Source: a virus. From it: a stretch of DNA of 64,000 nucleotides. Below the pieces are notes generated by a model. It was given only the letters and a program-made list of their open reading frames with translations. It had not been told where the DNA came from and searched no databases. The stretch covers positions 1 through 64,000 of IMG/VR virus record IMGVR_UViG_3300036770_008700, one strand, 5' to 3'. Numbering within the stretch: the first letter of the stretch is position 1; each line of letters starts with the position of its first letter. Position numbers and translations under genes: made by a program. Shown here in pieces: positions 15,644 to 42,061 of the stretch.

Positions 15644-15970
15644 TTAACCGTTATAGATTCTTAACAAGAAAAGCTTGCCAGTGCTAATCCCAGAATAATG
15701 CATGTCACCAATAATAGGATTTTCTACCATGGTTAGAACCTTAATGGATTCACAGCCAGTTGTTTTCAGAAACACAACATAGTCTCCACATTTAACTCTG
15801 TGCGCTTCTGTCCACCACATACCATCATGAGTTTCCAACAATGTGTAAGATCTAGGAAACGATTCTGAAATATTGTGATCACATTTGGAGCAACGTTCGA
15901 TATCGTTTCCTCGCATATTGCACCGCCAACGATAAACTTTGCCGGTCTTAAGTTTGTCACGCTTCAACAT
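15644..15970 (-). CDS. GKLY-family paralogue (Cys-rich RWRC subfamily)
   Basis: GKVYRWRC...CGDYVVFL...IKVLT. Confidence 0.7.
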   Translation of the reverse strand: MLKRDKLKTGKVYRWRCNMRGNDIERCSKCDHNISESFPRSYTLLETHDGMWWTEAHRVKCGDYVVFLKTTGCESIKVLTMVENPIIGDMHYSGISTGKLFLLRIYNG

Positions 15971-16287
15971 ACGTTAGAACTTTCTGAAGAGTGAGCCAGA
16001 AGAAGTTTACCATCTTTAGATGATGATTCATAGTACATCTTTCCAACACAAGGATCAGCTGTCATGGTTAATACAATAATGGATTCATTGTGGATTGGTG
16101 AGATAGGAATAACGTAGTCTCCACAATATACAACGTCTTCATCATTGATTCCTGTTTGGAGAACAATGTAATTTGACCAGTCTGGTATTGTTATATCACA
16201 TCCACAATGATTGAGATTATTATTCGTCAGGCCACACCGCCACCGATATATCTTTCCATAAGCAAGTGTGTCACGAATCTTATTCAT
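15964..16287 (-). CDS. GKLY-family paralogue (RWRC subfamily)
   Basis: GKIYRWRC...CGDYVIP...IIVLT. Confidence 0.7.
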   Translation of the reverse strand: MNKIRDTLAYGKIYRWRCGLTNNNLNHCGCDITIPDWSNYIVLQTGINDEDVVYCGDYVIPISPIHNESIIVLTMTADPCVGKMYYESSSKDGKLLLAHSSESSNVC

Positions 16288-16585
16288 GGTCCATGAACAG
16301 TTTTATATCATCAGACGACATAATACCAACAACAGGGTCATCATTCATTGTTAATACCCTTATTCCTACAGTTCCGTATTTAGCTAAGGGAACAATGAAA
16401 TCGCCGCAATAAATACTGTCTACCGCTCTCATCATACCTGATGGGAGTGCTTTACCTAAAACACAGTAATCCTTCCAATTATACCTTTCTTTATCACAAG
16501 CACAATCGTTATAGGAATTGTTTGTTTTACCACACCGCCAACGATATATCTTTCCATAAAGAAGTGATTCATGTTTCTTATTCAT
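16280..16585 (-). CDS. GKLY-family paralogue (RWRC subfamily)
   Basis: GKIYRWRC...CGDFIVP...IRVLT. Confidence 0.7.
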   Translation of the reverse strand: MNKKHESLLYGKIYRWRCGKTNNSYNDCACDKERYNWKDYCVLGKALPSGMMRAVDSIYCGDFIVPLAKYGTVGIRVLTMNDDPVVGIMSSDDIKLFMDHE

Positions 16586-16626
16586 GTGATATCACCATAT
16601 AGGAAAGATTCTTGTGATTATATCTC

Positions 16627-16959
16627 TCAATCAAATTCGATACTTACACGAACATGCTTGTGTGCATTCCATGGATTGTCAAACCATTCTCCAGCATCAT
16701 TCTCGTTGCTTGCTGGATAATCATAACATGCATCGATTACAATGAAACTTGAACGTTCAAGACTCCTCAGAAAGCTATACAACTCGCCAACATCAGTGTT
16801 GTGTGATGGATACCATTTCACATCTTCTATGTTGTATGCGGTACCTTCTGCATTCTCCAGAACCTCTGCTTCGAAACTGGTAACCAGCATCTCAGAGATA
16901 TGCTGTGGAAGCTTCACGCCAACTTTGTGAGCAAAGAATACATGAGAGCGACTTGACAT
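16627..16959 (-). CDS. hypothetical protein
   Basis: 110-aa ORF co-oriented with neighbours. Confidence 0.65.
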   Translation of the reverse strand: MSSRSHVFFAHKVGVKLPQHISEMLVTSFEAEVLENAEGTAYNIEDVKWYPSHNTDVGELYSFLRSLERSSFIVIDACYDYPASNENDAGEWFDNPWNAHKHVRVSIEFD

Positions 16960-17075
16960 TGGATTACCTGATTTTGTTTTGTTGTTTGTCGGAGACTGAG
17001 CGTTATTCCTTCAGTATGCGCTCCCCACTGTTAGTCTCATGGGCCACAGTCCCGGCCCACAGACCGCAAGACCAA

Positions 17076-19447: not shown

Positions 19448-19693
19448 TCAAAACGACTCGAAAACGAAATCTGCGAGTCGGGAATAAGAACGGTCAAGGA
19501 TGCTCTGATGCGTGCTGGTGGTACGAGAATACTTCCTGTCGTTGTAGTAAATCTTTCCAGCTTCATGGTCTACACGGAAGATCAGAACACCATAGCTACG
19601 AACCTCGTTACCCTTCATCTCAAGGGCACCATGACGGCAAGCAAGACCATCACGCACAAAAGCAACGAACTCGTTGTCTCGGATCTTTGCCAT
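19448..19693 (-). CDS. early hypothetical protein
   Basis: SYG...KYSRTTSTHQS motif; promoter cassette upstream. Confidence 0.6.
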   Translation of the reverse strand: MAKIRDNEFVAFVRDGLACRHGALEMKGNEVRSYGVLIFRVDHEAGKIYYNDRKYSRTTSTHQSILDRSYSRLADFVFESF

Positions 19694-21997: not shown

Positions 21998-22138
21998 GAT
22001 AGAGTTATACTGGTTTAATAATGTTGGATTAAAGGTTTTGTTTTTTTATGAGATTGATTGTGAAGATTGTTGAGTATAGTACGATTGGGAATGAGAGGAA
22101 TCCGTAGATGAAAGCGATTGAGTGAGATAGTATGTTCA

Positions 22139-22390
22139 TTATTCTAGTTTTGCTTCTTGGAATGCGTTAGTGTTTAGGTAGACGTTTAGTTCCCATTTGA
22201 TCCATCCAACGATTCCTTTTGGTGTTAGGATTTTTGAGCTACTTTGGTCTAGAGAGTGTTGTAGCAGTACGAATGGGATATTTGGACTGAGTTGATCAAC
22301 AATTTTTTGTTCTTGATTCCACACGATTCTTGTTCGTGAGTTCTGAGGTGTAACATACATTTTACCTACTTTGAGTTCGGAGAGGGTCAT
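22139..22390 (-). CDS. GKLY-family paralogue
   Basis: VGKMY...PFVLL...KILTPKGIVGWI. Confidence 0.75.
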   Translation of the reverse strand: MTLSELKVGKMYVTPQNSRTRIVWNQEQKIVDQLSPNIPFVLLQHSLDQSSSKILTPKGIVGWIKWELNVYLNTNAFQEAKLE

Positions 22391-22728
22391 AGTTTGGTTA
22401 AGTGTATATGTGAGTATTGTGGATGGTTTACCACCATGTATTTTACTTCACCTTCTGATGTTAGGATTTTTAGGATATTGTTATTTAGGTGATTTAGTAC
22501 AACGAAGGTATTATTTGGGTACAAGGGTTTGATGGATGTGTTAGTTGTGTATCCATGTGTTTTGAAGTTGATATCTGTTGCTTTATGCATCATGTTTGCG
22601 GCGATATTTGGGTTTGAGAAGTATGTTAGTATTGCTTGAGCTGCCCGTTCTGGTGTTTCGAACAGCAGCCAAACGTTTTCACTGATTGTTTGGTACAATG
22701 CTCCTGAATCAAAGTTTGATGTATTCAT
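22387..22728 (-). CDS. GKLY-family paralogue
   Basis: GALYQ...TFVVL...KILTSEGEVKY. Confidence 0.75.
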   Translation of the reverse strand: MNTSNFDSGALYQTISENVWLLFETPERAAQAILTYFSNPNIAANMMHKATDINFKTHGYTTNTSIKPLYPNNTFVVLNHLNNNILKILTSEGEVKYMVVNHPQYSHIHLTKL

Positions 22729-23018
22729 TGATTTGCGTTTTTAATGAGTTTGAAAGTAGACTTGTCTAAGATAAGCCATCCAACAACTCCATTTGTTGTT
22801 AGCACTTTAACACAAAAAAGTGGTTGTCGTTTTGGGTGGGAAAAGCTTGTTTTATCTTTATCCAGCACGACAAAAGGTTGCAAGGCTTTGATTGTGTCAA
22901 CAGTGTCAACAAATCCATCATACCAACGATTATCTTTTGGATGGAATTGACGCATATCGAGATCGATTTTACAGGCATACAGTTTGCCTATTTGCAGGTT
23001 TTCTTGTGTTGTAATCAC
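22725..23018 (-). CDS. GKLY-family paralogue
   Basis: IGKLY...PFVVL...KVLTTNGVVGWL. Confidence 0.75.
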   Translation of the reverse strand: MITTQENLQIGKLYACKIDLDMRQFHPKDNRWYDGFVDTVDTIKALQPFVVLDKDKTSFSHPKRQPLFCVKVLTTNGVVGWLILDKSTFKLIKNANQ

Positions 23019-23053
23019 ATTCTTAGTTTAACATGGTATAATCGGCACATAAA

Positions 23054-23359
23054 CTAAATCTGTGTTTTGTCATAGGAAAACACATAAGGCAAATCACTAT
23101 CTTCAAGTGATAACCAACCTACTTCACCTGTTGTTGTTAGAATTTTTACACGATGGACATGGAACGTAGTTTTCTTGTATTTCCTATAGGCAAATATTAC
23201 AGTATGAAGCTCTAACGGAACAAAAGCAAGATCTGGTGATAGCAGTTTGTTTGTGCTTAGTGTGGCATCAGGTTGTTTTGGATCAACCATATCATACATT
23301 GCCATGTAATGTGGAATATGATATAAGCCGCCGAGTTTGATATCCGAGATATTTTTCAT
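23054..23359 (-). CDS. GKLY-family paralogue
   Basis: LGGLY...AFVPLE...KILTTTGEVGWL. Confidence 0.75.
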   Translation of the reverse strand: MKNISDIKLGGLYHIPHYMAMYDMVDPKQPDATLSTNKLLSPDLAFVPLELHTVIFAYRKYKKTTFHVHRVKILTTTGEVGWLSLEDSDLPYVFSYDKTQI

Positions 23360-23619
23360 GTTATGATTTCCTCAACGGTTTCACCTTCCCAAAAACGAAG
23401 ATAACCAACCAATCCAGTTTCTGTAAGCACTTTTACAAGAAAGGTTTCATGATACGTATCATGACGAATCACGCTACCAAGTGTTACAAAAGGTGATTGT
23501 TCTTCTATGCGGCCTAATAGATATAGTTTCTCCAAAGTCGGCTTTGTTGCGTCAGCGAGCAACGCTTTAGGAATATCGCAGCAGTATATTTTACCAACTT
23601 TTATTTCTTTGGGGTTCAT
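23356..23619 (-). CDS. GKLY-family paralogue
   Basis: VGKIY...PFVTL...KVLTETGLVGYL; start ATG 23619. Confidence 0.75.
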   Translation of the reverse strand: MNPKEIKVGKIYCCDIPKALLADATKPTLEKLYLLGRIEEQSPFVTLGSVIRHDTYHETFLVKVLTETGLVGYLRFWEGETVEEIIT

Positions 23620-23629
23620 TAATACTCTT

Positions 23630-23902
23630 TCACTCTTTAAGTTCTTTGAACCAATGAGTGCCTGTTGTAAAGTATGCCCAACCAACTTGACCTTTACTTG
23701 TTAGAAGTTTGCAATACCAAGTCATCTTATTTGGATCTTGTTCCTTTTCTAATAGAACCAAACATTCCATAGAAACAAGACTTACTCCTTCTGGAGTAAT
23801 AAGAAGCCATATGTCGGTCATAGCTTCATTCATCATACTAAGCCATATACCTTTATAGAGCTTCCCAACTTCTAAATCTTCTGGAGATAAAGGCAATCTC
23901 AT
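23630..23902 (-). CDS. GKLY-family paralogue
   Basis: VGKLY...LVLLE...KLLTSKGQVGWA. Confidence 0.75.
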   Translation of the reverse strand: MRLPLSPEDLEVGKLYKGIWLSMMNEAMTDIWLLITPEGVSLVSMECLVLLEKEQDPNKMTWYCKLLTSKGQVGWAYFTTGTHWFKELKE

Positions 23903-24201
23903 GGTTGTGTTACTTGTTTGAAGCAGTAAGGATAATCAAATAGATCGTAATGAAGTTCTGAGGTCCAACCAATGTTACCAGATGTTGTAAGAAGTTTCAA
24001 GCAAAACTGACTATCATGGATTAGTTTTACTTCCAAGACAACAAACCAATCATTTGGTAAAAGCAATGAACCGTAGGTTGAATGTAGGTGTGCCCGAGCG
24101 TATATGGAATGAGGTTTTTTGAATAGTTCAATCGTGTTCATGCGTTCTTCAACCGTATCGTATAAGCCACCAACTTTTAGTTCATGAATATACGTATACA
24201 T
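23899..24201 (-). CDS. GKLY-family paralogue
   Basis: VGGLY...FVVLE...KLLTTSGNIGWT. Confidence 0.75.
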   Translation of the reverse strand: MYTYIHELKVGGLYDTVEERMNTIELFKKPHSIYARAHLHSTYGSLLLPNDWFVVLEVKLIHDSQFCLKLLTTSGNIGWTSELHYDLFDYPYCFKQVTQP

Positions 24202-24517
24202 GCTTTACTTCCTCAATGCAACCCTTGGTCCATTCAGCGTCTTCTGGATAAAAAATCCAACCAATCTCTCCATTAGTCGTAAGAATCTTGCAAACCTTAT
24301 CCGTCTGTTCCAACAGCATAAACATGCTGTTTGGTTCAATATGAGAAACATTGCAGTTTAATCGATTGCTCCAATAATCAGTCCATCCTTCGGCGGCGCT
24401 CTCGACGACGGCGTAGGGGTTGGTTATGTCTGCGTGGGCGACGGCAGCAACAATATCCTTCGAAGGATAAAGCATCCAAAAGTATTTCTTGAACTGAAAA
24501 AGCTTTCCAATGTTCAT
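24182..24517 (-). CDS. GKLY-family paralogue with NNC-codon variable loop
   Basis: MNIGKLFQFKKYFWMLYPSKD-[loop]-YWS...KILTTNGEIGWI; close to the 40.9-42.1 kb genes. Confidence 0.85.
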   Translation of the reverse strand: MNIGKLFQFKKYFWMLYPSKDIVAAVAHADITNPYAVVESAAEGWTDYWSNRLNCNVSHIEPNSMFMLLEQTDKVCKILTTNGEIGWIFYPEDAEWTKGCIEEVKHVYVYS

Positions 24518-24574
24518 ACATCCAGTATATCACACCATAAACCGTTTATAAAGACTTAGATTATGAGGTAGAAG

Positions 24575-24790
24575 TTACTTCCTGCGTCGTCCAAGAACCG
24601 TGCCAATCTCACCATCGGGAACAAACTTGTTGTCCTTGTGGTAAATAAACTGCCGTGCGGTAATGTTTCCTTCTTCTTCCTCCTCACGGCACTCCATCCA
24701 ATCCCAATATGACTGCTCGCCTTGTCCACAAAGCCAAGAAGCAAAGTGACGGGCTGCGGCTTCATTCTCAAATTTGATCGTGATGTTCAT
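24575..24790 (-). CDS. hypothetical protein
   Basis: FASWLCGQGEQSYWDWM; own promoter. Confidence 0.65.
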   Translation of the reverse strand: MNITIKFENEAAARHFASWLCGQGEQSYWDWMECREEEEEGNITARQFIYHKDNKFVPDGEIGTVLGRRRK

Positions 24791-24836
24791 GTTCTTGTTA
24801 TATCACAAGGTTCTGGGGAAGTAAAGTATTTGTTTT

Positions 24837-25178
24837 TCACATTGTCAGAGAACGCTTCCAAGACTCCATGAAAGAGATAATGTTCTTTGCACCAACAGGA
24901 TTGGCACTATGAACAACATAACTTGGAATAACCATATATTCTGGATTATATTGATTGGCATACCACTTAAGAAACTCCATTGTGGTATCTTTCCCACCAA
25001 GATCATGATCAAACGAACAAAATGCTGGATCACCACAAGTTTCAATAATGTCTTTGGCATCATTGGTTGAGCGAGCAATCAGAATATGCATTCCATCCGG
25101 CCATAAAGATCGGTCAACCATCTCAATGGTTCGTTCGTCATCCAAAAAGAGAATATATTTTCCGTTAAAATCCATCAT
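24837..25178 (-). CDS. cyclic-phosphate-processing receiver-like domain protein
   Basis: LFLDDER, SFDHDLG, HSANPVG motifs. Confidence 0.75.
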   Translation of the reverse strand: MMDFNGKYILFLDDERTIEMVDRSLWPDGMHILIARSTNDAKDIIETCGDPAFCSFDHDLGGKDTTMEFLKWYANQYNPEYMVIPSYVVHSANPVGAKNIISFMESWKRSLTM

Positions 25179-25236
25179 GGATTAATAATAACAGTAGGTT
25201 CTGGAGAACTAAAGGAATATTCGCTGTTGCAAAGGA

Positions 25237-25821
25237 TCAAACTTCATATTTGATTGTGCGAACAATTTCTTCCAGATTCTTTTGACGATGCATTAGAGCG
25301 AAATAGAAAACAAGAGTGTTATACGCATCTACATCAGCACGATGAGGCTCGCCTTTGAAAGTAAGCTTGTATCGTCCCATACAAGAACGTAGACCACCCT
25401 TAACACTGTTTTCCTTTGCCATTTGCAGAAATGTGTAAATGGTTTTCACATCAATGGCACGGTGACCAAAGTAAGGAAACTCCACATTGTTTTCTTTGAA
25501 CTCTGCTTTTAGCTCGTCTGCGTCTCCGAATCCCCATTGAACAGGATTTACAAACGTGTTGTGTTGTACGATAAGTTCACCAAGTTCTGCAGCAACTTGT
25601 GATAGAGGAACAGCTTTGGTATCGATATCTTCTTGTGTGATGCCTGTGAGTTCTGTGATGAAAGGTGTTAGTGGCTCTTTGGGATTAACGTACCACTTAT
25701 ACGTTTGAATGTTGTTGATATTTGATCCAATGGCAACACCAACTTGAATGATTTTGGTGACGTTTCCTTCGCCGTTGCTGTTGAGTTCCAGATCAATTGC
25801 TAGATAGTTTTGCGTATTCAT
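25237..25821 (-). CDS. DEDDh 3'-5' exonuclease
   Basis: IDLE, ELTGI, WGFGD, HRADVDA motifs. Confidence 0.9.
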   Translation of the reverse strand: MNTQNYLAIDLELNSNGEGNVTKIIQVGVAIGSNINNIQTYKWYVNPKEPLTPFITELTGITQEDIDTKAVPLSQVAAELGELIVQHNTFVNPVQWGFGDADELKAEFKENNVEFPYFGHRAIDVKTIYTFLQMAKENSVKGGLRSCMGRYKLTFKGEPHRADVDAYNTLVFYFALMHRQKNLEEIVRTIKYEV

Positions 25822-31694: not shown

Positions 31695-32015
31695 TTAGAT
31701 TATCCTTTTCCAGTCGCCTGGAAACCAAATTATCCATCCACAGCTACCATCCTCAGTCAACACCTTTATGAAGTTTTGACGAATTACACCGTTTTCCTTC
31801 AAATCAAATTCTAACACAACGTTATTCAAATACACAACGTTTTTGTTTTTTTCTATCAAAGCTATCATTGAGTAACTGCAATGATCTAAATCATAAAAAT
31901 GGATTAAGTGTTCAAAGGTGAGCAGCTCCCGCAACGTCAAGCTTTCATATAGCTTGCCGGGAATCATTGGATTCTTTTGCCATTTAGCTAGCTCTCGTTG
32001 AAACAGATAACTCAT
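31695..32015 (-). CDS. GKLY-family paralogue
   Basis: PGKLY...VVYL...KVLTEDGSCGWI. Confidence 0.75.
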   Translation of the reverse strand: MSYLFQRELAKWQKNPMIPGKLYESLTLRELLTFEHLIHFYDLDHCSYSMIALIEKNKNVVYLNNVVLEFDLKENGVIRQNFIKVLTEDGSCGWIIWFPGDWKRII

Positions 32016-32632: not shown

Positions 32633-32953
32633 CTAAAGATTTAGGTTGATTTTTTTTGGATTAACTTTTTTCCAGTAACCTAAACCAGCTTCGCTAACTT
32701 GTATCCACACTGGACATGCATCGCCAGTTAATACCTTCATCCAGTAATAGTTTACAGATGATGTTGTATACTCAGATATCGATGGCCATATGTCAGCTTG
32801 ATTTTTAATCTCAAGCAAAACAACATATGAACCATCTTCAATATGAACACGATCAAAGTAGTATGAAACACTGCCTGGATTGCCAACATGACCATGAAAC
32901 TTCCAGGGCGCTTTATACAACTTTCCTATCTCCAACATCTTGGTTTTCTTCAT
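32633..32953 (-). CDS. GKLY-family paralogue
   Basis: IGKLY...YVVLLE...KVLTGD...VWI. Confidence 0.7.
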   Translation of the reverse strand: MKKTKMLEIGKLYKAPWKFHGHVGNPGSVSYYFDRVHIEDGSYVVLLEIKNQADIWPSISEYTTSSVNYYWMKVLTGDACPVWIQVSEAGLGYWKKVNPKKINLNL

Positions 32954-32994: not shown

Positions 32995-34062
32995 TCACAT
33001 AGAAAGGTTCTGAGCCGTGAATCCAGAAAGCTCTTGAATACGCTCCACGTAATAAGCCTTGAGAGACTTGCTAATACCCCGCCAAACTTCATCGGCAACT
33101 GTGGCAGTTGTACGAAGAGAGGTAGGAGTAGGGTCAACACGAGGCTGTGCATACGGGTTGGTAATAGTATAAGACGGATTAGTGTTACCACGCTGGCCGG
33201 GAAGCTTCTTGATAAGAATTCCATGCATGGTCTTGAGTTGTGAGATAGCAACCTTGATACTGCTAGGAGCAAGACCACTGCGATTAGCAATCGTAGCAAG
33301 AAACAACGTGCCACCACCATTGCGGTGACTTGCCATAAACACATCATAAACCTTCTGGCAACCAGAAGTCATGCCAATCCAAGACGCACGAGGACGACCA
33401 CGGCGAGCAGCAGGTTGAGCAACAGTCGCAGCAGAACCCTTTGAAGCTTTAATAAAGGATGAAAGAAATTCAACCCAATTCAGAATGGTATCACCATTGA
33501 TAGAACCAGAATGCTGGCGAAATTCAATCGTGTTATGCTTGGCAAGCGCATGAAGGTTAACCTTGTAATAACGATCAGGCAAAACACGCTGGAGAGCGTG
33601 CATAGTTTGGCAACTTTCAACCATATTAACTACATTAGAACCGCCCTTTGTGTAATACACATCAGAACCACGACGATTGGTAGGCATCATAAGATCAATG
33701 GTGCTCTCAAATTTAGTGTAACGATGGAAAACAGTCTTAACCTCTTCAACGCTAAGATCGCTTGCGTCAATATGAACATGCAATCCACAACTGCGATTAA
33801 CGAATGCACCCATCGCTTGAAGTGTTGCACATACCTTGCGCACAGTGCGCAAATCAGAAGCCTCTTCGGTGTCAAGAACAGGAGACACAAGCTCCATGCT
33901 GAAAAAACCATCAACATCAGACAATGAACCATCGTGCACAATACGCCATTCCGTACCATACCACTTTTCAATCATCAACCCACGCACATGCTTGCGCAAA
34001 TTCTCCACAGTGTTGAGAACGTTCTTGGGGCTGTAGAACTCGATCTCAATTCCGAACTTCAT
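32995..34062 (-). CDS. putative amidoligase (COOH-NH2 ligase) with inserted HTH-like segment
   Basis: FGIEIE, HDGSL, ELVSP, SCGLHVH, RYYKVN, TIEFRQH. Confidence 0.85.
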   Translation of the reverse strand: MKFGIEIEFYSPKNVLNTVENLRKHVRGLMIEKWYGTEWRIVHDGSLSDVDGFFSMELVSPVLDTEEASDLRTVRKVCATLQAMGAFVNRSCGLHVHIDASDLSVEEVKTVFHRYTKFESTIDLMMPTNRRGSDVYYTKGGSNVVNMVESCQTMHALQRVLPDRYYKVNLHALAKHNTIEFRQHSGSINGDTILNWVEFLSSFIKASKGSAATVAQPAARRGRPRASWIGMTSGCQKVYDVFMASHRNGGGTLFLATIANRSGLAPSSIKVAISQLKTMHGILIKKLPGQRGNTNPSYTITNPYAQPRVDPTPTSLRTTATVADEVWRGISKSLKAYYVERIQELSGFTAQNLSM

Positions 34063-34145
34063 ACAACTAGAATACCAAACGTTAAGAAATTTCTAAAGGA
34101 ATTCTTTCTTTTTTATCTTAACGTTTTTTTAGCTGCTTTACAGGC
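34063..34145 (-). promoter_or_regulatory. strong early promoter cassette, copy 4 (diverged)
   Basis: TTTAGA-17bp-TATTCT with cgtttgg before the -10 as in copy 1; leaderless ATG. Confidence 0.7.
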
Positions 34146-34375
34146 AAAAATTTAGTAAACAAACTGAACCATTGAATGATAGCAAACAAAAAAACAAGCA
34201 AGTGAATTATTTGTGGATGTTTATCTTTAAAGTTTAGGTGTGACTTGTTATGATAGAGTTTATATGGGCGACAACGTTTTGGAAGATACGATTGCAGGAG
34301 TGTATTTTTGCATGGTGATTCCATTTGTTATTGTTTTGGCATACAACGTTTTCAACTGATTGAAAGGTGAAATAC

Positions 34376-34582
34376 ATGAGTAACGATGTTTTTGTTGTAA
34401 TGGAAGGTGCAAAGATTGCTGGCGTTTATCGTTATAGAGAGGATGCTGTTAGTCATGCACAAGCCTGTGGAGGAAATTTTATCGTGCAACCTATTCGTAA
34501 CGAGATTCCTGGTTGGGTTCAAGTTATGGTAGATTCAGCAAAGAAAAAGGCTCAAATGCAAAGCTCGGGAGTAATAAGATGA
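34376..34582 (+). CDS. hypothetical protein
   Basis: AGGTGA RBS then ATG 34376. Confidence 0.6.
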   Translation: MSNDVFVVMEGAKIAGVYRYREDAVSHAQACGGNFIVQPIRNEIPGWVQVMVDSAKKKAQMQSSGVIR

Positions 34583-35025
34583 GTAAAGAAACATTTAAAC
34601 CATCAAAGAATGCTGCCGAAATGTTAGCAGAAATGCATGACATGAGTGATGAAGAACTTGAATGGTTTAGTGATATGGGAATGGGTATTGCTGCCACAAT
34701 GGAAGACTTAACCGCTCAAATTGAGAATCCACCAAAAAAGCGTGTTAAAGGCTGCGAAGTGATTCACTTGGGAGCAGAGTTGTTTTTACCAATGCGTGCC
34801 TTAAAACAAAGGCTAGAAGCCGGTGGTTTAGAACTAGAAGATTATGTCCGAGAACTTGACCAAATTGTTGATAGGTTGAGTTTTGTTGTAACAGAAAATC
34901 AAAAAGTACTAAGCAACCCCAAGGTTCGTAACCATATGAAACAATTAGCAAACGCTGTTGTGCTTCACCTGGAAGCTGGTCCAGTGCTCAATAATATGTT
35001 TGGTATTCTTAGTCAAGAACAGTGA
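34579..35025 (+). CDS. hypothetical helical protein
   Basis: GGAG RBS; ATGA overlap with the upstream stop. Confidence 0.65.
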   Translation: MSKETFKPSKNAAEMLAEMHDMSDEELEWFSDMGMGIAATMEDLTAQIENPPKKRVKGCEVIHLGAELFLPMRALKQRLEAGGLELEDYVRELDQIVDRLSFVVTENQKVLSNPKVRNHMKQLANAVVLHLEAGPVLNNMFGILSQEQ

Positions 35026-35044
35026 CAGGTCATGTTTTGTTCAA

Positions 35045-35479
35045 CTACCCCAATCCTGGCGAATAAACGATAAAGTTTTCAAAACTAGCTGAACCTGTGT
35101 GATAAGGGTCACTTGCATTAAATGTGAATGACCCCGTAAGCGTTGGTATGCTTGCTGTTGGAATGCCTGTTAATCCAGCTAAAATCTGAAAATTAACTGA
35201 TCCGCTGCCACTTGGTTTCTTAAGATATATTTCTTTTACACGAACTTCAAATGTAGCATATCCATTGCTACCGATTGTAAAATGATTGGAATTACTGACT
35301 CCGAACGCTGTAAATCCAACATCTAAAGAACTAGTATTGGAATGAATCGTTATAAACTTGGTAACGTAGGGAAAGCTTATTTTAACTGGCGTTGTTGAAG
35401 CAGATGATGCTGTAACATATGGCAAACCAGATGCTAGGTAAGCTGGAACATCATTATAGCCGGGAGAGGGATATTGCAT
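35045..35479 (-). CDS. putative virion protein, tandem paralogue A
   Basis: PAYxxSGLPY...FPYVTKFIT...TFEVRVKE...AGLTGIPTASIPTLTGS shared with the next gene. Confidence 0.6.
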   Translation of the reverse strand: MQYPSPGYNDVPAYLASGLPYVTASSASTTPVKISFPYVTKFITIHSNTSSLDVGFTAFGVSNSNHFTIGSNGYATFEVRVKEIYLKKPSGSGSVNFQILAGLTGIPTASIPTLTGSFTFNASDPYHTGSASFENFIVYSPGLG

Positions 35480-35482
35480 AAA

Positions 35483-35902
35483 TCAACCGATACCTTCATA
35501 AGTTAAAACATTAGTGAATGAATTGCTGCCAGTAAAATAAGGATCAGACGAGCTAAATGGATATGAGCCTGTGAGTGTTGGAATGCTTGCTGTTGGAATA
35601 CCTGTTAATCCAGCAATGATATGAAAAGTATGAGCACCATCAATATACATTTCTTTTACTCGAACTTCAAATGTAACGGTATCATTGTTGGAAATACTGA
35701 AATAGTTTGTCCCTGCAACACCGTTTGCTGTGAATCCAATCTTTAAAGATCCACCGTCAGCTTTCACTGTAATAAACTTGGTCACGTAAGGAAACTGCAC
35801 ATGATATGCAGGTGCTGATGTTGCGGTGCCTGTGAGAGCATATGGTAGTCCAGAAATTTGATAAGCTGGAGTAAAGTTAAAGCCGGGCTGTGGCCATTGC
35901 AT
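35483..35902 (-). CDS. putative virion protein, tandem paralogue B
   Basis: Same motifs as paralogue A; TAGTTA late-type motif upstream. Confidence 0.6.
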   Translation of the reverse strand: MQWPQPGFNFTPAYQISGLPYALTGTATSAPAYHVQFPYVTKFITVKADGGSLKIGFTANGVAGTNYFSISNNDTVTFEVRVKEMYIDGAHTFHIIAGLTGIPTASIPTLTGSYPFSSSDPYFTGSNSFTNVLTYEGIG

Positions 35903-35969
35903 GTTGCTTATACCTTTTTTGTTGGTTGAACATAACTATTCAATAAACCAGAAAAGGATTTACAATCTC

Positions 35970-36092
35970 ATGCATGACAAACTTACTCTAGAAAAATGTT
36001 GCTCTGTGTTCGGTGACTCAAAATGGGCACCCCTCGCTGGCTTCCTAGCGGTTACAGAAGGTCTGCAAACCCTACACCACAGTCATCACTAA
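35970..36092 (+). pseudogene. orphan 5' fragment of the ferritin/Dps-like gene
   Basis: FGDSKWAPLAGFLAVTEGLQTLHHSHH* aligns with FGPNEYAPLAAFLAATEALQMIAHSHHW of 36736..37233. Confidence 0.8.
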
Positions 36093-36691
36093 CCTTCCCA
36101 TCTATTGTTCTTTTTCAAGTTATCAAACGCTGGAAGAGGTTGTAAATTTTCAAGAGCCCAGCACGCTTTAAACTCTGATGAATCTGTCGAATCGTAATTA
36201 AACCAAGAATCTGGTCTTATGTGGTCGATATGCCAATAAGTTCCATGATTTTCCCACGACATTTCTGGCGTAAATTGTTTTTCTAAATGTTCTTTTAACT
36301 GCTCTAAAGTGTAACCTACAAGATCAATCCAGCTTGTCCTATTTTTCGTTAAAAATCTAGTTTTAAGAGCATGGTTCATTCGTCTGCTCATGTTTTCTCT
36401 TAAACGAAACTGTGGATCAGTTGCTCTTCTTATTCTATTTTGTTCGTTCAGTTGTTCTTTTAATCTTTCACGACGTTCACGTTGCTTTTGAACGTAATGA
36501 TCTCTTCGTTTATGTCTGATTTCTTTCTTTTTCTCACGCAGTTTAACTTTGTTTTTTTGACAATATTCACGGCATGGCTCTTTTCTGCAAATTTTGCATA
36601 TGCTAAGATGGCCATCTTTTGATTTTTTATTTTTGTGATAATCAGTTAATGGTTTTTCAATCGAACACGAACTGCACTTTTTCAACGTCAT
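36089..36691 (-). CDS. HNH homing endonuclease
   Basis: N-terminal CxxC/CxxC; WHIDHIRP...CWALENLQPL...NLKKNN. Confidence 0.85.
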   Translation of the reverse strand: MTLKKCSSCSIEKPLTDYHKNKKSKDGHLSICKICRKEPCREYCQKNKVKLREKKKEIRHKRRDHYVQKQRERRERLKEQLNEQNRIRRATDPQFRLRENMSRRMNHALKTRFLTKNRTSWIDLVGYTLEQLKEHLEKQFTPEMSWENHGTYWHIDHIRPDSWFNYDSTDSSEFKACWALENLQPLPAFDNLKKNNRWEG

Positions 36692-36735
36692 ATACCTATC
36701 TATAAGTATTCTAAAAATAACTTAAAGGGATTTAT

Positions 36736-37233
36736 ATGGACAGTATTGATAATGTTTGGGAATCTATGGTTGAGATCTTTGGTCCAAATGAATATGCACC
36801 ATTAGCTGCATTTTTAGCTGCTACAGAAGCTCTTCAAATGATAGCGCACAGTCACCATTGGCAAACCAAAGGTGAAAACTTCTATGGCGATCACCTTCTT
36901 TATCAACGTCTGTATGAAGCTATCCTGCCTGAGATAGATTTGATTGGTGAAAAACTGATTGGTGTCAGCCAAGATGTTTCTCTTACCAACTACTTCAAAC
37001 GTGTTAAAGCAATGGAAATGTTTCTTAAAGCTGTAACACACAGCGATCAACCATATATTGTTGTAAGCCATGATGCAGAACTAACATACGTTCGTATGGG
37101 TGGCGAACTAATGGACCAACTAGAACAAGCTGGTTTGCTCACAAGAGGCTTGGAACAAATGCTAGGCAACGTTCTTGACAAACATGAAGAACATATCTAC
37201 TTGCTTGACCAAAGAGTTAAAAGCAACAAATGA
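36736..37233 (+). CDS. ferritin/Dps-like protein
   Basis: HHWQTKGENFYGDHLLYQRLYE...IDLIGEK...HEEHIYLL. Confidence 0.8.
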   Translation: MDSIDNVWESMVEIFGPNEYAPLAAFLAATEALQMIAHSHHWQTKGENFYGDHLLYQRLYEAILPEIDLIGEKLIGVSQDVSLTNYFKRVKAMEMFLKAVTHSDQPYIVVSHDAELTYVRMGGELMDQLEQAGLLTRGLEQMLGNVLDKHEEHIYLLDQRVKSNK

Positions 37234-37856
37234 AACTATATCCAATATTATTTGAGCAACAAGAAACAGAGCATCCTTTCTCTCCAGAGTTGTTTGATGC
37301 TTTAAAAGAGTTTGTTGACAAAAACAATATTGAAAAGCTTGAAGCATTGATGCCAGAAATTAAAGAGTTGGTTTCATCAAACAAGTATCCAAATATAACA
37401 GATCCAAGTGATGTTAAAGTATATCGTGGAATGAAAATCAGCTTTAAACGAGCAGAAGAGCTATGCAAAACTTATCAATGCATAGAAGAAGAAACAAGTA
37501 AAAACAACGTTGTTTATAAGACGTTTAAAGGTTCTGTTGTTGTTCCTACTAAACGTAACGTACAAAGTTGGTCTGGAAATGTTAACGTTGGCATTCAATT
37601 TGCTATGGACCCAGAAATTGGTGGTGAAGTTCCAATCGTGTTCTCGGCAATAGCTTCAAAAGACAAGTTTTTCGGTAAGCCGGGAGAAATTGCAAGAATT
37701 GTTTTGCCAAGACGAGCGAGTGAAATGGAAACAATATCTATTTCTCCAGTAGAATCAGATGGTTTTGTTTTGGCAATTCCACCAGATGATTTCTTTGGAA
37801 GGAATCCAAGTTTAACCGATCCATATACCCTCAAGAAATTGACTTTAAAGCTCTGA
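37230..37856 (+). CDS. ADP-ribosyltransferase-like protein (R-S-E) with MKLYPILFE leader
   Basis: VYRGM...QSWS...FA...EMET. Confidence 0.65.
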   Translation: MKLYPILFEQQETEHPFSPELFDALKEFVDKNNIEKLEALMPEIKELVSSNKYPNITDPSDVKVYRGMKISFKRAEELCKTYQCIEEETSKNNVVYKTFKGSVVVPTKRNVQSWSGNVNVGIQFAMDPEIGGEVPIVFSAIASKDKFFGKPGEIARIVLPRRASEMETISISPVESDGFVLAIPPDDFFGRNPSLTDPYTLKKLTLKL

Positions 37857-37888
37857 AATTATTTTGACACAAAAGGAGTATAAAACCC

Positions 37889-38542
37889 ATGCTTTTGTCT
37901 GATATATGGAAACTTCAAGGTTCGGCAAAACAAGAACAAGCATTGTTAGAAGAGCTAACTAAAGCTCCACTGGTGTTTAAAGAAGTAACGTTGCAAGACG
38001 CAACCAACGTTTTAGTTCTTCAAGTTACAAATGATTACTTGTGCTTGGAAACCATAAGAGTTTCCTTGTTGCCAGCAACAGCTCAAAAAGTTGCCAACCA
38101 TTTCAATTGTATACTTCCAACCAAAAACCTTGTTGATAAGATTTGGAAAGCTTGTGACTTAAAGTTAAACCCAAAGTCTATGTCAACCAATCGTGGTTCT
38201 TATGACACACTCAAAGCACACAATGACTCAATAAATACTCAAGTAAACAACCGAGAGTTTGTTTTGATTGGTGGTCATAAGAAAGACATTGTAATCAATA
38301 GCAAAATGCCAAAAGGCAAAGTAATCATATATGGCTGGCATTACCCTAATGGTAAACCTATTCAACCAGAAACAACTGTTCATGGTGATTTCTACAAAGA
38401 CTATTCACATGGAACAAGACTTGTAAGTAAAACTGTAATGTTGAATGGTGAAGTTAAAAATATCTGGGATGTGATTAACAGTGCTGTTTGGGAAAAACTG
38501 GTTGGAGATAAACCCTTTTTAGAAACTGGATATAGAGTTTAA
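37889..38542 (+). CDS. conserved hypothetical enzyme (possibly cell-wall related)
   Basis: GGHKKDIV, IYGWH, PIQP, DYSHGTRLV motifs; function not assignable from sequence alone. Confidence 0.5.
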   Translation: MLLSDIWKLQGSAKQEQALLEELTKAPLVFKEVTLQDATNVLVLQVTNDYLCLETIRVSLLPATAQKVANHFNCILPTKNLVDKIWKACDLKLNPKSMSTNRGSYDTLKAHNDSINTQVNNREFVLIGGHKKDIVINSKMPKGKVIIYGWHYPNGKPIQPETTVHGDFYKDYSHGTRLVSKTVMLNGEVKNIWDVINSAVWEKLVGDKPFLETGYRV

Positions 38543-38575
38543 ACTTTATCCTTTTGTTTTAAGAACAAATTTAGG

Positions 38576-38690
38576 TTATTTGGTGGTTCGCAATCCACCA
38601 ACACAAATGACCCACGAATCTGTGGCGTCTTTCATTTCTGTGTTGTGGATTTTAGTTGTGTTTGGTTTTCCAATTTTCAGTATATTGTTT
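38576..38690 (-). pseudogene. orphan 3' fragment of ruvC
   Basis: KIGKPNTTKIHNTEMKDATDSWVICVGG* aligns with KTGKSANQEVFNSEMKDACDAWVVVVGG. Confidence 0.8.
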
Positions 38691-39716
38691 TTACTCAATA
38701 CTGTTTGTGGGCAAAGTTGTAGAAACATTTTCTTTCTCTTCCTGATCTAATAAAATCCAACCCTTATAAGCCTTTCTTTTACCTTTAATCAAATCATGCA
38801 TTGATGATTGAGACAAACCATGTTCTTTGCAGAATTGGTTTAGGTTTGAAATAGGTCCAAAAACTTTATTTGTTGGGGATTGAATTCTCACATCATATGT
38901 ATTGCTTATTTTTGAGATTCTGTCAGTTTTTATTGAATCTTTTGTGATATGCTTATTTTCCAAAAGTCTCCAACCTTGGCAAATTTTAGCATAGCCATTA
39001 ATCATTGATCTAAAGTTTTTATCATTGATTCCATGCTCTCTGCAAAATGCTCTAAGATTAGTGATAGGACCATACTCTTTATTATTCGGGCACACAACCC
39101 GCACATCGTATACTTTTTGTAATTTTTGAGCTAGTAAATCTTTTGCTGGAATGTATGGAATGTCTTTATTTATTGCTAATCTCCAACCTTTACAAGTTTT
39201 TACTTTACCCTTTCTTAACTGCAAAAGATGCGAATAAAATATGTTGTTTTCTATGCAAAATTTACGTAAGTTAACCACCGACACAAATTTACCATTTGGA
39301 TCAATCAAATCTACTGATAGTTTTTTCTTGGAATTCGACAACTTTTGTTTAGTTTGCTCTGAGAGTTTTAAACCCAAATTAGAATAAGCAGTTGGATTAA
39401 TATTGTAACATTCATTTTGATTGTCATAATATTGATCAAGCCAATATTGCTCTCTCTGAACGATGTTGTCAACAGTGCAATGTTCTAAAACACGCATCTC
39501 AAAACTATCAAAATACTTCAAGTATTCTTTTTGCAGGTAAGGGCTTGCTCGTCCTTTTCTTAAATTTGTATTATGCACCCCAAGTCTTTTGGTAATCGAC
39601 AAACAACTTCCTATGTAAATTTTATTGTTTCTGACATTGCGTATTTGGTATATGGCTGGTGTTTTTGGAGTGTATTCACCATTCAATATAATTGGCCCTA
39701 GTAATCTTCTTGTCAT
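38691..39716 (-). CDS. GIY-YIG homing endonuclease with three C-terminal DNA-binding repeats
   Basis: AIYQIRN...KIYIGS...R...REQYW...YN; three NLxxFCxE...GW repeats. Confidence 0.9.
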   Translation of the reverse strand: MTRRLLGPIILNGEYTPKTPAIYQIRNVRNNKIYIGSCLSITKRLGVHNTNLRKGRASPYLQKEYLKYFDSFEMRVLEHCTVDNIVQREQYWLDQYYDNQNECYNINPTAYSNLGLKLSEQTKQKLSNSKKKLSVDLIDPNGKFVSVVNLRKFCIENNIFYSHLLQLRKGKVKTCKGWRLAINKDIPYIPAKDLLAQKLQKVYDVRVVCPNNKEYGPITNLRAFCREHGINDKNFRSMINGYAKICQGWRLLENKHITKDSIKTDRISKISNTYDVRIQSPTNKVFGPISNLNQFCKEHGLSQSSMHDLIKGKRKAYKGWILLDQEEKENVSTTLPTNSIE

Positions 39717-39738
39717 GCGAGATAAGTAGTTATACCAT

Positions 39739-40299
39739 TTATTTTATCCCGTCAAGTCTCTTTCCTCCAACGACAACCACCCATGCATCACAAGCATCTT
39801 TCATTTCCGAGTTAAAAACTTCTTGATTGGCACTTTTACCTGTTTTTGCCACATGTTTTTTCCAAGGAAATTCTGGATGTAGTGCTGTGATAAAATCAAA
39901 CACTTTCTCTTTAACGGGACGTTTATCGGCTTTGTTATTCTTAAACCCTACAGCTTTTCTAGCAGAAGTTACGTTAACATCAACAACTTCTGCATTAAAA
40001 GCTTTATGGGAAAGATAGGAAATGATTCCATTAAATTTTGATAAGACTGCAAGTGTATCTGCGCTGCTAAAACCCTTACTAAACATCTTAGCATTAGCTT
40101 CAACATAGATACGTTCTACTTTTTTATCACCAACTAGTTTCTTTATCTCTTCAATACCTCTATCTGCTTTGTCCCACATAGTATGTAGTGTGCTGGAAGT
40201 CAATTTTACAGCATCAAATACAACAACTTGTTCATTTTCATCAACCAAACAAACTCCAGTGCAACTCGTGCTGATATCAAGTCCTAAGAAATATTTCAT
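39739..40299 (-). CDS. ruvC: RuvC-like Holliday junction resolvase
   Basis: LGLDISTSCTG, IYVE, ARKAVG, KEKV, DACDA; start ATG 40299. Confidence 0.85.
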   Translation of the reverse strand: MKYFLGLDISTSCTGVCLVDENEQVVVFDAVKLTSSTLHTMWDKADRGIEEIKKLVGDKKVERIYVEANAKMFSKGFSSADTLAVLSKFNGIISYLSHKAFNAEVVDVNVTSARKAVGFKNNKADKRPVKEKVFDFITALHPEFPWKKHVAKTGKSANQEVFNSEMKDACDAWVVVVGGKRLDGIK

Positions 40300-40325
40300 A
40301 TTGATTCCTTTAACATCCCAAACAA

Positions 40326-40841
40326 TCATTCGTCATAAACCTCGCAACCATAAAGACGCCTAATCTTGTCAACTGATTGCTTTGGAATCTTGCACGTATA
40401 ACTTACTTGATAGCAATCTTTGTTTGAAGCAGCTAAAACTACATGGTCTTTCCATGTTGGCTTCATGTTAAGAAACTCAACACCTAGTTGCTGTTGAAAC
40501 AACTCAACAACAGCATTTACCCAGCCCCAGCCGGTTTTAAATGCCATTTGCTTGCCTCGTGGAATATTAATGTTTAGTCGTTGTGTTTTGTAACCAGCAA
40601 TGGTTTCATTCGACCATACAGCTTCATTCAAAGCAATCCAATCATTATTCGAGGTACGTGAGTATGCAGCCGCAAAATCCTTGAGACGACGACCTACTTG
40701 AACATAACATTGTTCTGGCAAAGCATCTACTAATGCTTTTCTTTGCTCGGTCATTGCTTGCTCAAGTGTTGAGTAAAAGTTAACTGTAGTGATTGCTTTG
40801 TCTTTATTGCCAACAAGCATGTAATACGATTTTTGAATCAT
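40326..40841 (-). CDS. hypothetical protein
   Basis: AGGAG RBS; 171 aa. Confidence 0.65.
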   Translation of the reverse strand: MIQKSYYMLVGNKDKAITTVNFYSTLEQAMTEQRKALVDALPEQCYVQVGRRLKDFAAAYSRTSNNDWIALNEAVWSNETIAGYKTQRLNINIPRGKQMAFKTGWGWVNAVVELFQQQLGVEFLNMKPTWKDHVVLAASNKDCYQVSYTCKIPKQSVDKIRRLYGCEVYDE

Positions 40842-40882
40842 AATGGTGACTCCTTACGCTAAGTTATCACACACGTTTTTCT

Positions 40883-41185
40883 TTATAAACCAATATCAAA
40901 ACATTCATTATCACACCAATCATCAGGAACAAAAATCCATCCAAGCTGTCCATTGTTTGAAAGAACTTTTAAACAATTTCTATCTCGCTCAATCAAACAG
41001 AATATACTCTTTGGTTCAAGATAAGAAACGTTGCAGTTTAAATGAAATGAATAATATTTGGCTGCATCGCTGGTGTCTCGAAGACTACATCGTCGAATAG
41101 CAATGCTGCTGTGTAGGATACTATCTTTTGAAGGATACAACAACCAAAAGTATTCCTTGATTTGATAAAGCTTTCCAACATTCAT
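40883..41185 (-). CDS. GKLY-family tandem copy 4 (variable loop)
   Basis: MNVGKLYQIKEYFWLLYPSKD...YYS...KVLSNNGQLGWI. Confidence 0.85.
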   Translation of the reverse strand: MNVGKLYQIKEYFWLLYPSKDSILHSSIAIRRCSLRDTSDAAKYYSFHLNCNVSYLEPKSIFCLIERDRNCLKVLSNNGQLGWIFVPDDWCDNECFDIGL

Positions 41186-41475
41186 TGGTTTACTTCCTCA
41201 ATATAGTTCTTGTCCTTGTAAAAATCAGAAAGATAAATCCAACCAAGCTCACCATTAGTTGAAAGGATTTTACAGAACTTACCATCTTGCTCCAAAAAAC
41301 AGAAAATGCTTTTTGGAGAAATATATGAAACGTTGCAGTTATATTCCTTGCTATAATAAGCGGCGGCGGAGGCGGTGGTGTCGAGGGAGGCGAAGAGGAA
41401 GGCGTCAGCAATATCCTTTGAAGGATAAAGTAACCAAAAATACTTCTTGACTTGATAAAGCTTTCCGATGTTCAT
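41182..41475 (-). CDS. GKLY-family tandem copy 3 (15 consecutive NNC codons)
   Basis: MNIGKLYQVKKYFWLLYPSKD...YYS...KILSTNGELGWI. Confidence 0.85.
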   Translation of the reverse strand: MNIGKLYQVKKYFWLLYPSKDIADAFLFASLDTTASAAAYYSKEYNCNVSYISPKSIFCFLEQDGKFCKILSTNGELGWIYLSDFYKDKNYIEEVNQ

Positions 41476-41768
41476 TGATTTACTTCCTCAATATCGGCTT
41501 TGCACCAATCAGCAAGATTAATCCAACCAAGTTCTCCATTAGTTGAAAGAATCTTGCAACAATACCCATCTTGTTCCAAGAGCATAAAAATGCTGTTTGG
41601 AAAAATATATGAAACGTTGCAGTTGAAACGCTTGCTATAATAATCAGCGCCCTCTACGGCTTCGGTGAAGGAGGCTCCAGCAACAGCGGGGTAGGTGGCG
41701 ACTTCATCCTTTGAAGGAAAAAGAAACCAAAAGTATTTCTTGGCTTGATAAAGCTTTCCAACATTCAT
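41472..41768 (-). CDS. GKLY-family tandem copy 2 (variable loop)
   Basis: Same frame as copies 1, 3 and 4; different loop. Confidence 0.85.
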   Translation of the reverse strand: MNVGKLYQAKKYFWFLFPSKDEVATYPAVAGASFTEAVEGADYYSKRFNCNVSYIFPNSIFMLLEQDGYCCKILSTNGELGWINLADWCKADIEEVNQ

Positions 41769-42061
41769 TGATTTACTTCCTCAATGCAACCCTTTGCCCA
41801 ATCTTTATTTTTTGGATAAATGATCCAACCAAGTTCTCCGTTGGTTGAAAGAATCTTGCAAAATCGTCCATCTTGTTCCAAAAAACAGAAAATGCTTTTT
41901 GGAGAAATGTATGAAATATTGCATTTGAAATACGTGCTCCAATAATCAGCAACAGCGGCGGTGGCGGCGGCGGCCAGATCGTCTTCGGCGGCAGCAATCT
42001 CCTTTGAAGGAAAAAGGAGCCAAAAATACTCCTTGACTTGATAAAGCTTTCCAACATTCAT
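41765..42061 (-). CDS. GKLY-family tandem copy 1 (variable loop)
   Basis: ATG 42061 follows a TG-TATACT leaderless promoter. Confidence 0.85.
   Translation of the reverse strand: MNVGKLYQVKEYFWLLFPSKEIAAAEDDLAAAATAAVADYWSTYFKCNISYISPKSIFCFLEQDGRFCKILSTNGELGWIIYPKNKDWAKGCIEEVNQ

Follow-up and report, generated by a model that had tools for sequence, protein, structure and literature searches.

The first 64,000 nucleotides of the IMG/VR virus record IMGVR_UViG_3300036770_008700 (64 kb, called the window below) encode on the minus strand a multi-copy family of small proteins for which a barrel of the bacterial SH3 type (SH3b) is well supported by the model of one member taken together with sequence profiles. 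The copies keep a common scaffold, differ in loop-like segments and may together serve as a repertoire of intracellular binding modules. An initial annotation, made from the letters alone, had described about 29 members with three shared motif blocks and an unrelated stretch between the first two, and had guessed an SH3- or KOW-like fold.

Family membership and copy number

The 29 minus-strand open reading frames (ORFs) fitting the described motifs were aligned and a profile hidden Markov model (HMM) was built from them. Among the 626 stop-to-stop ORFs of at least 40 amino acids in the window, this HMM recovered all 29 (E 1.3e-28 to 1.5e-11) and no other ORF or shuffled sequence, which bears out the small-protein family placed at these positions by the initial annotation; behind them came the next ORF at E 0.27, and 3130 shuffled ORFs gave E 0.017 at best. 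Because this test is circular, it was repeated with single ORFs or whole clusters left out. Leave-one-out HMMs retained 25 ORFs at E ≤ 3.7e-6. ORF 30009–30326 reached only E 0.011, and the ORFs at 15644–16585 scored 3.7e-7 to 2e-4 solely through each other. When entire clusters were omitted, recovery was 8/8 at 22.1–24.5 kb, 3/3 at 26.2–27.0 kb, 4/4 at 40.9–42.1 kb, 10/11 at 27.7–33.0 kb (30009 was missed) and 1/3 at 15.6–16.6 kb (E 0.0075).

Profile–profile comparison (hhalign) aligned ORF 30009–30326 with the family over 66 colinear columns at a probability of 37%, whereas the trio at 15.6–16.6 kb obtained a mere 4.5% against the 25 robust members. A broad profile of 314 relatives gave E 0.045 for ORF 30009–30326 and E 3.7–55 for the trio; this profile is dominated by one subfamily, designated MNxGKLYQ, which had served to retrieve the metagenome loci, and it therefore judges distant members severely. 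Judged by these profiles, the tally for the window is 25 robust members, one borderline member (30009–30326) and three unsupported ORFs (the trio), and the earlier figure of about 29 has to be reduced to that extent. The 29 ORFs, with revised starts, cover 8655 of the 26,418 bases between 15,644 and 42,061. Taken literally, the motif of block 1 is present in 21 of them, that of block 2 in 7 and that of block 3 in 10, all three occurring together in 3 of the 29; none was found in the 597 other ORFs of the window. The blocks are consensus forms rather than fixed strings. In the whole record, 34 of 1496 ORFs match the family HMM, including five beyond the window at 98.0–101.2 kb of the record among nucleotide-metabolism-like genes, and the record-wide number of copies is 30–34 in 123 kb.

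The unsupported trio (15644–15970, 15964–16287 and 16280–16585; minus strand) is a Cys-rich tandem with look-alike motifs. Its ORFs are 41–44% identical to each other and have invariant cysteines (C18, C28, C30 and C55; YRWRC ... C.CD ... CGD) that could, to judge from their conservation, form a small metal-binding site. An AlphaFold2 (AF2) model from a five-row alignment (predicted local distance difference test, pLDDT, 44.5) was too poor to use. The trio may represent very distant relatives or a separate small family.

Predicted fold and relation to SH3b domains

The member at 41182–41475 was modelled with AF2, using the 25 robust members as alignment, and the model is confident (pLDDT 89.2; predicted template-modelling score, pTM, 0.81). 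It has strands at residues 6–9, 14–17, 50–52, 57–64, 67–72, 77–81 and 92–94 and helices at 20–25, 34–45 and 84–88, and the predicted structure is a five-stranded barrel of the SH3b type. When it was compared with 48,161 chains by VIA-align, the top matches were SH3b domains: 2evr (Z 7.7, 2.3 Å, 67 residues aligned), the N-terminal SH3b domain of a Nostoc NlpC/P60 endopeptidase; 4krt (Z 6.9), the phiSM101 endolysin Psm; and 3h41 (Z 6.8), YkfC of B. cereus. Nearly all rows below these three were SH3, SH3b, FeoA or KOW. The guess of an SH3-like fold is therefore upheld by this model, with SH3b and SH3 domains ranking above KOW. Foldseek against the Protein Data Bank (PDB) ranked 4krt, the SH3_3 domain of the phiSM101 endolysin, first (E 0.022) and listed many SH3 domains of Fyn, Abl, Hck and Lck (target TM 0.6–0.68, probability 0.9–1.0); against BFVD, phage 'SH3 domain' proteins were found with similarly weak scores.

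Sequence comparison may point the same way. SH3_3 (PF08239) was the sole Pfam family matched by more than one member (4/25 at E ≤ 1, best E 0.012), and the family profile matched the protein P0104 at E 4.6e-10, summed over seven short stretches at the c–d hairpin motif; P0104 (1151 aa) consists, by Pfam, of 16 SH3_3 repeats (E 3.7e-158). The same profile found nothing below E 0.27 among PDB sequences. Several of these results weigh against the fold assignment. The Foldseek E values are weak (0.02–0.1, the best being 0.022 and none ≤ 0.001), a VIA-align Z below 8 (best here 7.7) can reflect a common arrangement only, and the confident model covers one member, the common fold of the other 24 resting on profile homology. 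Moreover, 0/25 members reach the Pfam gathering threshold for SH3_3 (27 bits; best 16.2 bits), and by sequence score the family lies outside formal membership of PF08239.

The model is matched best by SH3b domains from peptidoglycan hydrolases (2evr, 4krt, 3h41 and LytB), and a free-standing SH3 protein (DUF7244), encoded in single copy beside the endolysin in the lysis module of the T1-like Drexlerviridae, is described in PMC13164509. Like that protein, the members are phage-encoded single-domain SH3 proteins, and they could accordingly be imagined as cell-wall (peptidoglycan) binding modules that aid lysis or adsorption. This is distinctly unlikely. On reading, the N-termini (MNIGKLYQ and the like) show neither a signal peptide nor a membrane anchor; the neighbouring genes scanned included no recognisable endolysin or holin, and no hydrolase fusion or adjacency was found. 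None of the 25 members matches DUF7244 at E ≤ 1, and an accessory lysis factor would need far fewer than the 25–34 copies seen here, which sit among genes for replication and nucleotide metabolism.

That gene context, together with VIA-align matches to a KOW domain (5ohq, Z 4.9) and to the SH3-like domains of Pif1/RecD2 and IdeR/FeoA, and BFVD matches to a T4-type 'transcriptional regulator' and a T4 early ORF, would also suit KOW-, Tudor- or Sm-type regulators that bind nucleic acid or polymerase and retune host transcription or translation, instead of diversified protein binders. We regard such regulators as a doubtful explanation, if one to be taken seriously: the KOW-type and BFVD regulator matches rank below SH3b with low TM (0.44–0.46), the model lacks an N-terminal Sm helix, the isoelectric points (pI) of the members run from 4.6 to 9.4 with about half of the members acidic, and it is difficult to see why a phage should have 25 regulators of a single kind.

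Conserved scaffold and variable loops

In the modelled SH3b barrel, block 1 (GKLY) corresponds to strand a, block 2 (FVxLE) to strand b and block 3 (KILTxxGxxGW) to the c–d hairpin. The near-invariant residues (G4, Y7, L61, L71 and G75) belong to the core or to turns, none of the near-invariant positions looks catalytic, and the distal turn has three residues in 25/25 rows of the alignment. Variation from copy to copy is found in two segments: an RT-like segment between blocks 1 and 2 (27–62 aa), which is unalignable between subfamilies and has helices inserted in the model, and an n-Src-like segment between blocks 2 and 3 (6–24 aa). In the model, the two sit at the positions of the RT and n-Src loops, which border the ligand groove in SH3 and SH3b domains. 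The variable stretch singled out by the initial annotation is the former, and its variability stands; the second variable segment had been overlooked.

In the MNxGKLYQ subfamily (46 genes from the record and the fetched loci) the RT-like loop, 25–53 aa long, has a composition of its own. Its G+C content is 58% versus 35% in the flanks, and C occupies the third codon position in 49% of loop codons versus 15% of flank codons in these genes. Counted over 39 distinct loops (847 codons), 35% of the residues are Ala, encoded by GCC in 211/298 cases; CCC is used for 33/47 Pro codons in loops versus 2/81 in flanks, GGC in 18/33 versus 7/140 cases and TCC in 20/33 versus 3/130. Loop codon positions 1, 2 and 3 are 55% G, 56% C and 65% C, respectively. 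Next in frequency to Ala come T, V, D, P, S and G, all of which can be reached from GCC by a single substitution, and K, Q, M and W are nearly absent. Period-3 tracts were detected in loops by Tandem Repeats Finder (TRF) at 41955–41974 of the window and at 10142–10177 of the related locus L004 (12 copies). From these codon patterns we read the MNxGKLYQ RT loop as a decayed (GCC)n triplet tract that would lengthen and shorten in frame. The reading is confined to this one subfamily; the loops of other members lie in AT-rich DNA.

The excess of C-ending codons in the loops and the near absence of K, Q, M and W might alternatively be the mark of a targeted diversification system, either resembling a diversity-generating retroelement (DGR) or of another kind, that writes the MNxGKLYQ loops. 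We consider this highly improbable. The variable loop length is unlike a fixed-length template copy, codon positions 1 and 2 are non-random with a consensus of GCC and not NNC, and the loops contain period-3 GCC/CCG tracts. Reverse transcriptase (PF00078) has 0 matches in the 122,895-bp record, itself about a third (~33%) of the genome, and no dedicated search for a template repeat was made. For the reasons of variable loop length, GCC codon consensus, period-3 tracts and no reverse transcriptase in the record, a DGR was rejected as the main explanation and the triplet-tract reading is preferred. A broader proposal is that the phage lineage keeps its SH3b library diversified by recombination at scaffold blocks combined with (GCC)n tract change in the RT loop, in the manner of a contingency locus and without reverse transcriptase; we advance it with little confidence.

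Selection, distribution and strain turnover

Within the record, identity to the nearest paralogue is mostly 24–47%, several members have no BLAST match at all, and only the five MNxGKLYQ genes reach 52–66%. The ratio of nonsynonymous to synonymous substitution rates (dN/dS) of the scaffold is 0.13–0.30 in five paralogue pairs of this subfamily, and all 25 robust frames are intact. The family copies are real genes under purifying selection.

A profile search of 1.84 billion representatives yielded 638 matches at E ≤ 1e-3 and 89 at E ≤ 1e-10. Among the 150 matches listed, all but two are 55–139 aa long, the two being P0001 (181 aa) and P0104. A cluster look-up of 10 matches returned no informative name ('hypothetical protein' only), a search with the family alignment, which is a weak test, found no longer or fused relatives, and the pattern used found no relatives in the genomes of 185,579 prokaryote species. 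In the databases searched, the family is phage-only. Its relatives occur on one IMG/VR contig and 19 metagenome contigs. Counted by HMM, the expansion noted initially for a single phage is seen in its relatives as well, with 136 members in 21 loci (e.g. 33 in 18.5 kb of L011, 22 in 11.8 kb of L010 and 10 in 5.4 kb of L007); a search of viral contigs with a single member found no related locus. The flanks are syntenic in related contigs (TnsA-like endonuclease 87% identical, structural proteins 74–95%), and the array beside the TnsA-like gene comprises 4 copies in the window, 6 in G001 and at least 7 in L004.

The top match of the profile search, the metagenome protein P0001, looks like the product of a MNxGKLYQ gene that is partly duplicated internally and then reads through into the next copy in a different frame. 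Its structure is a hint that unequal recombination is frequent in the arrays or that assemblies of them are chimeric.

Closely related sequences differ in their family genes. Locus L005 is 99–100% identical to the window over the genes at 23630–24201 and over 24556–25821; it carries two family genes more than the window does there, its version of 24182–24517 has a mosaic 5′ half, and the RT-like segment of 23630–23902 differs by a 15-bp indel. Contigs of four runs from four studies were also compared. Three of the four runs have the 15-bp indel of 23630–23902, and three of the four the 6-bp indel of 31695–32015. The stretch 26431–26812 is replaced in X4, 24381–24439 is replaced in X4 and X5, and in a single contig of X17, of low depth, a 949-bp deletion removes the cluster at 26.2–27.0 kb. 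The family turns over in that whole genes are gained, lost or replaced, with breakpoints falling within family genes, and in that loops change by in-frame indels.

Differing copy numbers among related contigs, genes deleted or replaced as a whole in some strains, and the recombination breakpoint inside 24182–24517 are also what one might see if the ORFs were selfish or near-neutral ORFan cassettes of little phage function, spreading by recombination between their own conserved blocks. The chance of this is small, given the low scaffold dN/dS, the 25 intact frames and the near-identical copies in runs from 12 studies; furthermore, the paralogues are only 24–47% identical and yet keep the scaffold motifs.

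Proposed role

To the reading that the members are standalone intracellular binding modules with loop-specific partners, forming a repertoire for host takeover or counter-defence, we give about an even chance of being correct. The proteins, which would be produced as polycistronic and translationally coupled sets, would stay in the cytoplasm, as is suggested by the lack of a visible N-terminal hydrophobic signal and of any fused enzyme domain found. Each would act as a single-domain module whose RT and n-Src loops hold a partner of its own, from host or phage, and the repertoire would arise from the copies together. The assignment to host takeover or counter-defence is the most speculative part; it is argued by analogy from the genomic context, the absence of enzyme features and the precedent of Nip. 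According to PMC11984713, Nip is a counter-defence protein of phi3T against SpbK, encoded by a single gene, with 279 aa, two predicted SH3-like domains and an HU-like dimerisation domain. It offers a precedent for SH3-like domains in phage counter-defence.

Other findings speak against such a repertoire. The region 27.7–32.0 kb is nearly unchanged between strains (5 differing letters in ~3–4 kb in X4 and X5), and this near-identity gives no sign of a fast strain-level arms race for most copies. The spread of pI values suggests no common charge-based mechanism such as DNA mimicry, and there was no RNA run among the runs matching window 22100–32000.

Gene organisation and coordinates of the members

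Of 19 close junctions between family genes, 15 overlap in some way and 9 are 4-nt ATGA overlaps, in line with the frequent ATGA coupling reported initially. In the MNxGKLYQ subfamily the codons for the C-terminal IEEVNQ contain GAGGAAGTAAA directly before the next ATG, which amounts to a Shine–Dalgarno-like site inside the preceding gene; we infer that such internal sites fit translational coupling. Neither sigma-70-like promoter-like sites (43 versus 51.5 ± 6.2 in shuffles) nor terminator-like sites (16 versus 12.3 ± 3.2 in shuffles) are enriched.

An identical 13-mer, TG-N-TATACTGGAT (extended −10-like), occurs on the minus strand at 24520–24532 and 42064–42076, ending two bases before the ATG. 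The two sites precede the first gene (ATG 24517 and ATG 42061, respectively) of two MNxGKLYQ units, and the motif might mark leaderless transcripts. As a general promoter motif, TGNTATACTGGAT was rejected: it has only two exact matches and, with two mismatches allowed, 7 versus 5.7 expected.

The members, all on the minus strand, are given here with their leave-one-out E values; starts were chosen from upstream purine-rich stretches. The cluster at 22.1–24.5 kb begins with 22139–22390 (83 aa, E 2e-11), which has an ATGA overlap with the upstream member, 22387–22728 (113 aa, E 1e-10), the copy with the longest RT-like segment (62 aa). Next come 22725–23018 (97 aa, GTG start, E 6.7e-15), to which a protein from other samples (P0019) is near-identical, and 23054–23359 (101 aa, E 4.1e-11). 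Member 23356–23619 (87 aa, E 2.6e-9) was started at ATG 23619, with AAAGAG upstream, where the ORF list has TTG 23685. The strain indel of 15 bp, in frame, is at 23780 in the RT-like segment of 23630–23902 (90 aa, E 4.5e-10). The cluster ends with 23899–24201 (100 aa, E 2.1e-12), which has a 99% identical orthologue in L005, and 24182–24517 (111 aa, E 5.2e-18), a MNxGKLYQ gene with a GC-rich loop whose 5′ half is mosaic relative to L005.

At 26.2–27.0 kb lie 26219–26461 (80 aa from ATG 26461; E 8.1e-11 for the longer ORF; ATGA overlap), 26458–26715 (85 aa, E 1e-8) and 26705–26950 (81 aa from ATG 26950, E 7.1e-8). The second of these has the sub-threshold Pfam SH3_3 match of E 0.012 and is replaced in one strain contig (X4, joint 26431–26812); a protein identical to the third, P0064, occurs elsewhere. 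The cluster at 27.7–33.0 kb contains 27749–28054 (101 aa, E 1e-6), 28482–28778 (98 aa from ATG 28778, E 1.1e-6), 28780–29106 (108 aa, E 3.7e-6), 29103–29417 (104 aa, E 9.8e-12) and 29408–29692 (94 aa, E 1e-11), the borderline 30009–30326 (105 aa), and then 30472–30813 (113 aa, GTG start, E 1.8e-7), 30815–31105 (96 aa, E 8e-9), 31092–31358 (88 aa from ATG 31358, E 1e-9), 31695–32015 (106 aa, E 2e-8) and 32633–32953 (106 aa from ATG 32953, E 9.3e-7). In 31695–32015 the in-frame 6-bp strain indel falls in the RT-like segment (insertion at 31889), and 32633–32953 is directly downstream of an amidoligase gene. The last cluster is made up of 40883–41185 (100 aa, MNxGKLYQ subfamily, E 2.4e-20), the modelled 41182–41475 with its SH3b matches (97 aa, E 4.6e-21), 41472–41768 (98 aa, E 5.8e-22) and 41765–42061 (98 aa from ATG 42061, E 1.4e-22), whose loop holds the period-3 GCG/GCC tract at 41955–41974.

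Genomic setting

The record, labelled 'provirus' in IMG/VR, has a CheckV-estimated completeness of ~33%. The window (G+C 35–46%; no tRNA genes found) codes for tail-like and other large proteins without PHROG matches and for many replication and nucleotide-metabolism genes; the neighbours scanned include KaiC/DnaB-like ATPase, RNase T, cREC_REC, amidoligase, GIY-YIG and TnsA-like genes. No close relative was found in INPHARED, either by polymerase (<30% identity to any record) or by megablast of window 33000–45000 against its phages (no match). Near-identical DNA (66–100% of sampled words) is present in 20 runs of 12 studies, with labels that are mostly freshwater; 2 of the 20 runs may be the source of the record itself.

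A DnaE-like (Pol III alpha) DNA polymerase is encoded in two plus-strand ORFs at 2389–7370, of which 2389–4263 corresponds to positions 37–436 of phrog_405 and 5121–7370 to positions 441–1040. Between the two lies a 320-aa ORF (4223–5185), and the polymerase gene may be split or invaded. Between two family clusters, at 24837–25821 (−), a cREC_REC 'cyclic-phosphate processing receiver' protein (E 8.6e-18) adjoins an RNase T-type exonuclease (E 5e-14); this pair has 72–100% identity in L005, L007, L008, L011 and L012. The Amidoligase_2 gene (PF12224, E 1.1e-31) is at 32995–34062 (−), with its stop directly upstream of family member 32633–32953. A 471-aa LRV/HEAT-repeat protein is encoded at 42503–43918 (−; E 8.7e-26) and has a paralogue at 7425–8762 (+); both match one L004 ORF with 44% identity.

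Other paralogues are present in this lineage. Tandem copies of 144 and 139 aa (MQ.P.PG.N..PAY..SGLPY...), recognised by eye, lie at 35045–35902 (−), and no Pfam match was obtained for the part scanned (35045–35479). Also by eye, a common stretch (...NEFV.FV....GAL.MKGNEVRSY...) was seen in an 81-aa ORF at 19448–19693 (−) and a 120-aa ORF at 99216–99578 (−) of the record, the latter adjoining the distal family genes. Finally, the 284-aa ORF at 11568–12422 (+) has matches at three separate sites in L002 and again at three in L004 (28–32% identity) and thus belongs to another multi-copy family of this phage lineage.

Relation to known families and implications

By sequence search the family is unnamed, as no Pfam, PHROG or NCBIfam family covers its members. 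With PHROG, no member passed the threshold and no family recurred (three families were each matched by 1/25, best E 0.0016), NCBIfam matched 0/25 members, and tblastn of member 41182–41475 against INPHARED gave no match. In the ESM Atlas only unnamed viral clusters were hit (22725–23018 at 0.91; 15644–15970 at 0.76, which is below noise). A full-text literature search found no paper describing the family or phage arrays of SH3-like paralogues. The fold is already known, and free-standing phage SH3 proteins are already described (PMC13164509). With SH3_3 the family shares the barrel, as predicted from the top structural matches 2evr, 4krt and 3h41, and its c–d hairpin motif (hydrophobic-L-T..G..GW) resembles the SH3_3 consensus. 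Unlike SH3_3 proteins, the members are free-standing and not fused to hydrolases, have no secretion signals and stay below the Pfam threshold; the long, partly helical insertion in the RT loop and the dozens of paralogues in one phage are further differences.

Large lytic phages have blocks of small non-essential early genes, such as the 'hyperplastic regions' of T4 with their PeSL cassettes. The arrays resemble these in having many small ORFs without assigned function between replication genes and in a content that varies among relatives. They differ in that they consist of one homologous family, mostly overlapping, without intergenic promoter/stem-loop cassettes.

What makes the family interesting is above all the size of the expansion, the wide distribution of the phage that carries it and the triplet-tract loop. 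The lineage is nearly unchanged across the runs of 12 studies, which makes the family ecologically relevant and not a curiosity of one assembly, and a family HMM would turn ~30 'hypothetical proteins' per genome into one annotated family. The GCC-tract loop provides a concrete, testable mechanism for protein diversification in a virus; if our reading of the tract is true, it would be a contingency-locus-like source of new binders against changing host defences or targets. Should the members prove to be loop-specific binders, they would amount to a rich and so far unused natural source of single-domain inhibitors or adaptors directed against bacterial proteins, and would supply direct candidates for counter-defence and host-takeover screens.

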